Source: Escherichia phage UFV-AREG1. From it: a DNA stretch of 64,000 bases. Both the position numbers and the translations under genes were made by a program. Shown piece by piece: positions 53,894 to 54,673 of the stretch. Location of the stretch: the sequence record KX009778. The stretch is one strand, 5' to 3'. Under the pieces are notes generated by a model, which ran no database searches, was not told where the DNA came from, and saw only the letters and a program-made list of their open reading frames with translations. Each line of letters opens with the position of its first letter. Positions within the stretch are counted from its first letter, which is position 1.

Positions 53894-54673
53894 ATGGCAG
53901 TAGCAGGACCGTGGGTAGGATCGTCTGCAGTAATTAATACAGGACAAAATTGGATGGGTGGCGCGGCCCAACGATTAAGAATGGGTGCTCCATTTTGGAT
54001 GAGTAATATGATAGGTCGATCTGTTGAAGTAATTCACACGCTTGGAGCAGACCATAACTTCAATGGTCAATGGTTCCGAGATAGATGTTTTGAGGCAGGT
54101 AGTGCACCTATAGTGTTTAATATTACTGGAGATTTAGTATCATATTCTAGAGATGTTCCTTTATTCTTCATGTACGGAGATACACCTAATGAATACGTTC
54201 AACTGAACATACACGGCGTAACGATGTATGGTCGTGGTGGGAATGGTTGGGCCGCTGGTGCAATTGGAGCATCTGATGGCGGTGTATGTATCCAGAATGA
54301 TATAGGTGGACGTCTGCGAATTAATAATGGCGGAGCTATTGCCGGTGGCGGCGGTGGCGGCGGTGGTTATTCACAAGCCAACAACTGGGCGGGAAAATAT
54401 GTTTGTGGCGGCGGTGGCGGTCGTCCATTCGGATTAGGCGGAAATAATGGTGCTCGATGGCCTGGTGGTAATGCTAGTTTGACGTCTCCGGGTGCTGGCG
54501 GTAATACTGGTACAAGGTATTATGCAGGTGACGGTGGTGAAGTTGGTCAGCCAGGACAATATGCTAATCCAGGTGCTGGTTATTCAACACCTCCGACAAG
54601 TCCTGGTGCTGCTGTAGCAGGATCAGCTCCAACATGGCAGAATGTTGGAGCAATATATGGTTCAAGAGTATAA
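53894..54673 (+). CDS. 38: Tail fibre adhesin gp38 (T2/K3/Ox2 type)
   Basis: 259 aa from ATG after RBS ggagg (ORF track starts at upstream TTG 53882); polyglycine tracts GGGGGGGG and GGGGG flanking variable segments. Confidence 0.8.

Follow-up and report, generated by a model that had tools for sequence, protein, structure and literature searches.

The name gp38 covers two unrelated proteins of T-even phages, a receptor-recognizing adhesin of the T2 type and an assembly chaperone of the T4 type. Gene 38 of the Tequatrovirus UFV-AREG1, an Escherichia phage, therefore raises the question of which of the two it encodes and, if an adhesin, which receptor it recognizes. The phage is reported to infect E. 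coli O157:H7 and also an O111 strain and ATCC 23229 (reported hosts ATCC 43895, CDC O11ab and ATCC 23229), and has been proposed as a biocontrol phage for E. coli O157:H7. The DNA analysed was a window of 64 000 nt of the genome (sequence record KX009778); the features discussed below are listed in Table 1.

Gene 38 and the architecture of its product

Gene 38 is an intact reading frame that runs from an ATG at 53894 to a TAA at 54671–54673 and encodes 259 aa. A longer listed version of this frame, beginning at a TTG at 53882, was dropped as mechanical, and the ATG was taken as the start because GGAGG precedes it and because the annotated relatives all have a 780-nt gene. The product is exactly YP_009281584.1 (gp38, UFV-AREG1). 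The public databases thus already list this protein, correctly named, with the annotation 'tail fiber protein; host specificity'. The genome-analysis paper on UFV-AREG1 makes no mention of gp38, gp37 or OmpC. Among the nucleotide sequences of the BLAST collection, HY01 and PEC04 came nearest over gene 38 (98.7 %), and PEC04 was also near over 16 kb (95.9 %).

Family membership was clear from several collections. Pfam PF05268 (Phage tail fibre adhesin Gp38) matched aa 45–259 across its full profile (1–218) with 248.6 bits (E 7.9e-74; cut-off 25 bits), PF21721 (Gp38_N) matched aa 1–40 (74.2 bits, E 8e-21), and PHROG 2056 ('tail fiber protein; host specificity') was matched with E 2e-110. An NCBIfam search gave no match for either type of gp38, T2 or T4. 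Residues 37–259 were identical at 220 of 223 positions to the receptor-binding domain of PP01 gp38 in its crystal structure (PDB 9V85), and the full-length protein aligned with gp38 of phage S16 in the gp37–gp38 complex (6F45_D, E 2.6e-53). The earlier note had read this gene as a T2-type adhesin and not as a T4-type chaperone. That reading is supported, because the Pfam, PHROG and PDB matches agree and T4 gp38 is unrelated; the Peptidase_S74 domain of the neighbouring gp37 points the same way.

Three parts can be distinguished in the protein. The role of the N-terminal domain in attachment to the gp37 tip is taken from published work on the family (Trojet 2011, PMC3157838; PMC12892980), and aa 41–112 correspond to the segment that is a beta-helix in the solved receptor-binding domain of PP01 (PMC12892980). 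For the remainder, the specificity domain, a polyglycine-II sandwich with protruding loops is predicted because of the near-identity to 9V85 and the alignment to 6F45_D.

Table 1. Features of the tail-fibre region of UFV-AREG1, numbered from the first nucleotide of the window
Feature	Position	Strand	Basis
Gene 35	48708–49826		
TATAAATA, T4 late-promoter consensus, 5' of gene 36	49858–49865	+	Position
Gene 36	49889–50545		
Gene 37, 1101-aa distal long-tail-fibre subunit, predicted to bear gp38 on its tip	50554–53859	+	Pfam; C-terminus aligns to 6F45_A
gp37 aa 991–1101, Peptidase_S74 intramolecular chaperone domain, from SDIRVKKD	53524–53856	+	PF13884 (aa 991–1050)
C(UUCG)G tetraloop hairpin GAGGGGC-UUCG-GCCCCUU, between gene 37 stop and gene 38 ribosome-binding site	53866–53883	+	
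Shine–Dalgarno GGAGG, 5 nt 5' of the gene 38 ATG	53884–53888	+	Visible in sequence
Gene 38, T2-type receptor-recognizing adhesin, 259 aa	53894–54673, including stop	+	ORF; Pfam GP38 and Gp38_N; PDB 9V85 and 6F45_D
gp38 aa 1–40, N-terminal domain attaching gp38 to the gp37 tip	53894–54013	+	PF21721
gp38 aa 41–112, conserved body	54014–54229	+	72/72 identical to PP01 and AR1
gp38 aa 113–259, specificity domain, predicted polyglycine-II sandwich with five protruding loops	54230–54670	+	32 % Gly, entropy alternation, 9V85 identity
Loop A, aa 119–124 WAAGAI	54248–54265	+	Limits from PP01 structure; 2.06 bits
G8 run GGGGGGGG, aa 151–158, glycine-rich motif	54344–54367	+	Sequence, alignment, column entropy
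Loop B, aa 161–170, including Q161, K168 and Y169	54374–54403	+	PP01 structure and mutants, entropy
G5 run GGGGG, aa 172–176, opening the glycine-rich motif aa 172–183	54407–54421	+	Sequence, alignment, entropy
Loop C, aa 184–189 NNGARW	54443–54460	+	Limits from PP01 structure
Loop D, aa 204–209 NTGTRY, with R208 where PP01 has G208 and Y209 kept	54503–54520	+	PP01 structure
D213 codon GAC, in the glycine-rich motif that follows loop D	54530–54532	+	G in 18/18 close relatives
Loop E, aa 225–231 NPGAGYS, with A228 and Y230 kept	54566–54586	+	PP01 structure
Holin gene t	54704–55360		

Glycine accounts for 60 of the 259 residues (23 %) and for 47 of the 147 residues (32 %) from aa 113 onward. An alternation of glycine-rich motifs and hypervariable segments in the gp38 specificity domain was described by Trojet 2011 (PMC3157838), and it was evident here when column entropy was computed for gp38 aligned with 117 database homologues. 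Low values (0.3–1.2 bits) were found for the glycine-rich motifs at aa 113–118, 151–158, 172–183, 211–221 and from 238 onward, with 0.33–0.42 bits in the glycine runs themselves. The segments between the motifs were hypervariable, with 2.06 bits for aa 119–124, 2.59 for aa 159–171, 1.88 for aa 184–199, 2.58 for aa 204–209 and 2.00 for aa 222–237. Residues G151–G157 and G172–G176 were invariant across gp38 of UFV-AREG1, PP01, AR1, HY01, KNP5, T2 and T6. The glycine runs are therefore not a product of chance, being invariant in relatives and low in entropy against the hypervariable segments between them. The description of gp38 as a protein of about 259 aa with long glycine runs, first made by inspection, holds exactly (G8 at aa 151–158 and G5 at aa 172–176). 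The further proposal that these runs delimit the variable segments stands as regards the entropy contrast (0.3–0.4 versus 1.9–2.6 bits) and needs amending as regards their number, as the delimiting is done by five glycine-rich motifs and not by the two runs alone; the others include GRGGNG at aa 113–118 and AGxGGxVGxxG at aa 211–221.

At the nucleotide level, an exact 16-nt direct repeat, GTGGCGGCGGTGGCGG, occurs on the + strand at 54345–54360 and 54405–54420, within both glycine-run tracts, and flanks the segment coding for loop B. Such repeats could permit slippage, or recombination that exchanges or deletes the variable segment.

The predicted receptor of UFV-AREG1 gp38

The gp38 of PP01 binds OmpC of E. 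coli O157, and its contacts were mapped in a 2026 mBio paper (PMC12892980). In that work, loop E (N225–S231) inserts in a cleft that separates OmpC loops 5 and 7, with A228 and the conformation around Y230 essential. Y209 of loop D is likewise essential, and G208 cross-links to OmpC loop 5 yet can be deleted or replaced by alanine. For loop B, an essential residue is Y159, infectivity drops when Q161, K168 or Y169 is changed, and the last two of these are proposed to contact LPS sugars (PMC12892980). Adsorption of PP01 is lost on a delta-ompC O157 strain and is regained with plasmid-borne OmpC(O157) but not with OmpC(O157) lacking GVIN, an insertion in loop 7. Residues Y159, Q161, K168, Y169, Y209, A228 and Y230 are all present in UFV-AREG1 gp38.

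To predict the receptor, the 57 variable-segment residues of gp38 were compared with those of each reference adhesin. Identity was complete with AR1 (57/57) and nearly so with PP01 (55/57), and fell to 13/57 with T2, 8/57 with S16, 7/57 with T6 and 6/57 with M1. AR1 is placed among the OmpC-using phages in a review citing Yu et al. 2000, an assignment that rests on that citation (PMC9603124). The alignment that the earlier note had suggested for predicting the receptor thus indicates OmpC and not OmpA, Tsx, FadL or OmpF. The best-supported prediction is that gp38 of UFV-AREG1 recognizes O157-type OmpC and makes an accessory contact with LPS, because the variable segments match those of AR1 and PP01 and all functionally mapped PP01 residues are kept. 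A receptor experiment on UFV-AREG1 was looked for in the literature and none was found; for this phage OmpC is a predicted receptor. Receptor prediction from phylogeny has itself been published already (PMC12032242).

The differences that remain are few. Against 18 close relatives, differences in gp38 clustered in the N-terminal attachment domain and at positions 198, 207, 208, 210, 213, 228 and 236; synonymous and non-synonymous codon differences were few, too small in number for a selection test. In the UFV-AREG1 allele, D213 occurs together with R208 and S236, two residues that AR1 and KNP5 also have. D213 arises by a single GGC to GAC transition, is found in UFV-AREG1 alone among these relatives, and lies four residues past the essential Y209. 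The gene also has a mosaic look, with the N-terminal domain (53894–54013) equal to that of HY01, and R208 and S236 of the loop D and loop E region (54503–54601) equal to those of AR1 and KNP5, not HY01.

These differences bear on the main alternative, in which gp38 is a T2-type adhesin whose receptor is not, or not solely, O157-type OmpC, with G208R, G213D and N236S having shifted recognition to a different OmpC allele, a different porin or LPS. The three residues at which the receptor-binding domain departs from that of PP01 all fall within or beside loops D and E, single substitutions in the loops of PP01 gp38 alter adsorption (PMC6027323), single substitutions in Ox2 gp38 altered receptor specificity (summarized in PMC12892980), and UFV-AREG1 also lyses the O111 strain and ATCC 23229. 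However, AR1, an OmpC user according to PMC9603124, likewise has R208 and S236 and is identical at every variable-segment residue, and deletion or alanine at position 208 is tolerated in PP01. Position 213 seldom holds G in the wider family, where it is A, Q, N, S or D, so Asp at this position is compatible with the fold. We regard a shift of receptor as quite unlikely. A narrower effect of G213D, which could reshape or charge the face of loop D, alter the OmpC alleles accepted and perhaps contribute to activity on the O111 strain and ATCC 23229, is unlikely; if true, it would represent natural tuning of host range through a residue of a scaffold motif and not of a loop.

It is very improbable that gene 38 is a decayed or non-functional copy, or that D213, which lies in a glycine motif, reflects an error of sequencing. 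D213 is indeed a single G-to-A change absent from the other close relatives, but D occurs at position 213 in six more distant homologues, the frame is full-length and intact with a good ribosome-binding site, and UFV-AREG1 is a viable lytic phage. T6 amber mutants with truncated gp38 neither adsorb nor form plaques (Trojet 2011, PMC3157838), and the T2-fibre phage DT2 no longer plates once gene 38 is deleted (PMC12892980).

The reading of gene 38 as a T4-type gp38, a chaperone for gp37 folding that is absent from the virion, has in its favour nothing beyond the common gene name and a location flanked by gene 37 and gene t; it is already refuted at the level of sequence and its probability is negligible, as BLASTP against T4 gp38 gave E = 18, T4 gp38 belongs to PHROG 105 ('tail fiber assembly', E 6e-45), which UFV-AREG1 gp38 did not match, Pfam GP38 gave no match for T4 gp38, and gp37 of UFV-AREG1 has a Peptidase_S74 domain like that of T2, whereas the C-terminus of T4 gp37 carries Collar and Phage_fiber domains and lacks Peptidase_S74.

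The distal fibre and its gene module

The last 190 residues of UFV-AREG1 gp37 aligned with S16 gp37 (6F45_A, E 1.8e-43), and the SDIRVKKD motif at the start of the Peptidase_S74 domain is conserved in T2 and T6. From the family, autoproteolysis before Ser991 is predicted, which would release aa 991–1101, and by analogy with S16 and T2 gp38 would be incorporated into UFV-AREG1 virions.

An identical gp37 was found in the collection only in the entry for UFV-AREG1 itself, and the holin encoded by gene t is likewise an exact match to that phage. Compared with its closest relatives gp37 is a mosaic, with residues 1–100 and 901–1100 at 93–100 % identity, 201–300 at 52–56 % and 701–800 at about 70 %. 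For the tip and chaperone domain HY01 was closest (99/100 and 98/100). The gp37 of HY01 (912 aa) lacks exactly a 192-aa block, aa 675–866 of UFV-AREG1 gp37 (52576–53151; gene nt 2023–2598). Repeated gp37 deletions within 1980–2650 bp, with faster adsorption, have been described in PP01 populations (PMC6027323), and the block absent from HY01 falls within that region. Residues 447–547 of gp37 matched the Gp34_trimer domain of Pfam.

The gene order of the distal fibre module, 35-36-37-38-t-asiA, with asiA on the opposite strand after t, is common to T2, PP01 and AR1. The hairpin between genes 37 and 38 has a predicted energy of −14.5 kcal/mol, with a z of only −1.55 against shuffled sequences. 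Hairpins of this kind are known to occur between T4 genes. The closest TATAAATA upstream of gene 38 on the + strand is the one that precedes gene 36, and it is probably the late promoter that drives 36-37-38. This call rests on position, because the motif is not enriched in the window (10 occurrences versus 9.8 expected). Scans of the whole window (1–64000) gave no tRNA genes and no Rfam family at the gathering threshold. In gp35, the proximal hinge connector, aa 59–127 matched Pfam ILEI ('interleukin-like EMT inducer', FAM3-type) with 34.8 bits against a gathering threshold of 27; T4 and T2 gp35 match likewise, so this is a general T-even property.

Taken together, the product of gene 38 is very probably a receptor-binding adhesin that sits as a monomer on the tip of the trimeric gp37 of the distal long tail fibre and directs its loops to OmpC. 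Under this model, the gp37 trimer would fold with the aid of its own C-terminal Peptidase_S74 domain (aa 991–1101), which would then be cut off before Ser991, and one gp38 would dock on the freed tip through its conserved N-terminal residues (about 40). The glycine motifs would form polyglycine-II helices, packed in a rigid sandwich from which hypervariable loops A–E project, and these loops would bind the extracellular loops of OmpC on O157-type strains of E. coli. Loop E would occupy the cleft between OmpC loops 5 and 7, Tyr209 of loop D would support the contact and Lys168 and Tyr169 of loop B would touch LPS sugars, the binding as a whole constituting a reversible first step of adsorption.

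As gene 38 is expected to determine which bacteria UFV-AREG1 attaches to, the likely OmpC receptor is of practical interest for a candidate biocontrol phage. It predicts loss or alteration of ompC as the main route to resistance, and it predicts which loops to engineer for a changed host range. The outcome is a confirmation of the adhesin reading with a specific receptor call, and no new biology.

Relation to known gp38 systems

The T2-type gp38 family was defined in the 1980s (summarized in PMC12892980 and PMC3157838). The family, its design of glycine motifs and loops, and the way in which a 96 %-identical protein contacts OmpC have all been published, and the fold has been solved for S16 and PP01.

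The closest characterized system is PP01 (9V85; PMC12892980), which also infects E. coli O157:H7. Its gp38 has the same length of 259 aa, is identical at 248 of 259 positions, and shares loops A–E, the critical residues and the gene order. It differs at 8 of 40 positions of the N-terminal attachment domain and, in the specificity domain, by the three substitutions considered above (G208R, G213D and N236S). Still closer in sequence are gp38 of AR1 (254/259) and of the Shigella phage KNP5 (255/259), which differ by G213 in place of D213 and by a few N-terminal substitutions (A4T, I14V and others). HY01 gp38 is identical to UFV-AREG1 over N-terminal aa 1–40.

More distant members share the architecture but not the variable segments. 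The receptor of the Salmonella phage S16 is Salmonella OmpC. Its gp38 (6F45) has the same three-part architecture and glycine-rich motifs, and its gp37 tip and Peptidase_S74 domain align with those of UFV-AREG1, although just 8 of 57 variable-segment residues are common to the two. T2, T6 and M1 carry the classical adhesins of the Henning group; T2 uses FadL and OmpF, T6 uses Tsx and M1 uses OmpA. Their gp38 proteins belong to the same family and share the N-terminal domain, the glycine-rich motifs and the C-terminal tail WQNVGxIYGxRV, with 65–74 of 90 scaffold residues identical, as against 6–13 of 57 variable-segment residues. T4 gp38 resembles UFV-AREG1 gp38 in gene name and map position alone. 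It is an unrelated sequence of 183 aa and acts as an assembly chaperone that is not a component of the virion; in T4, receptor binding is performed by gp37 itself (PMC12892980).
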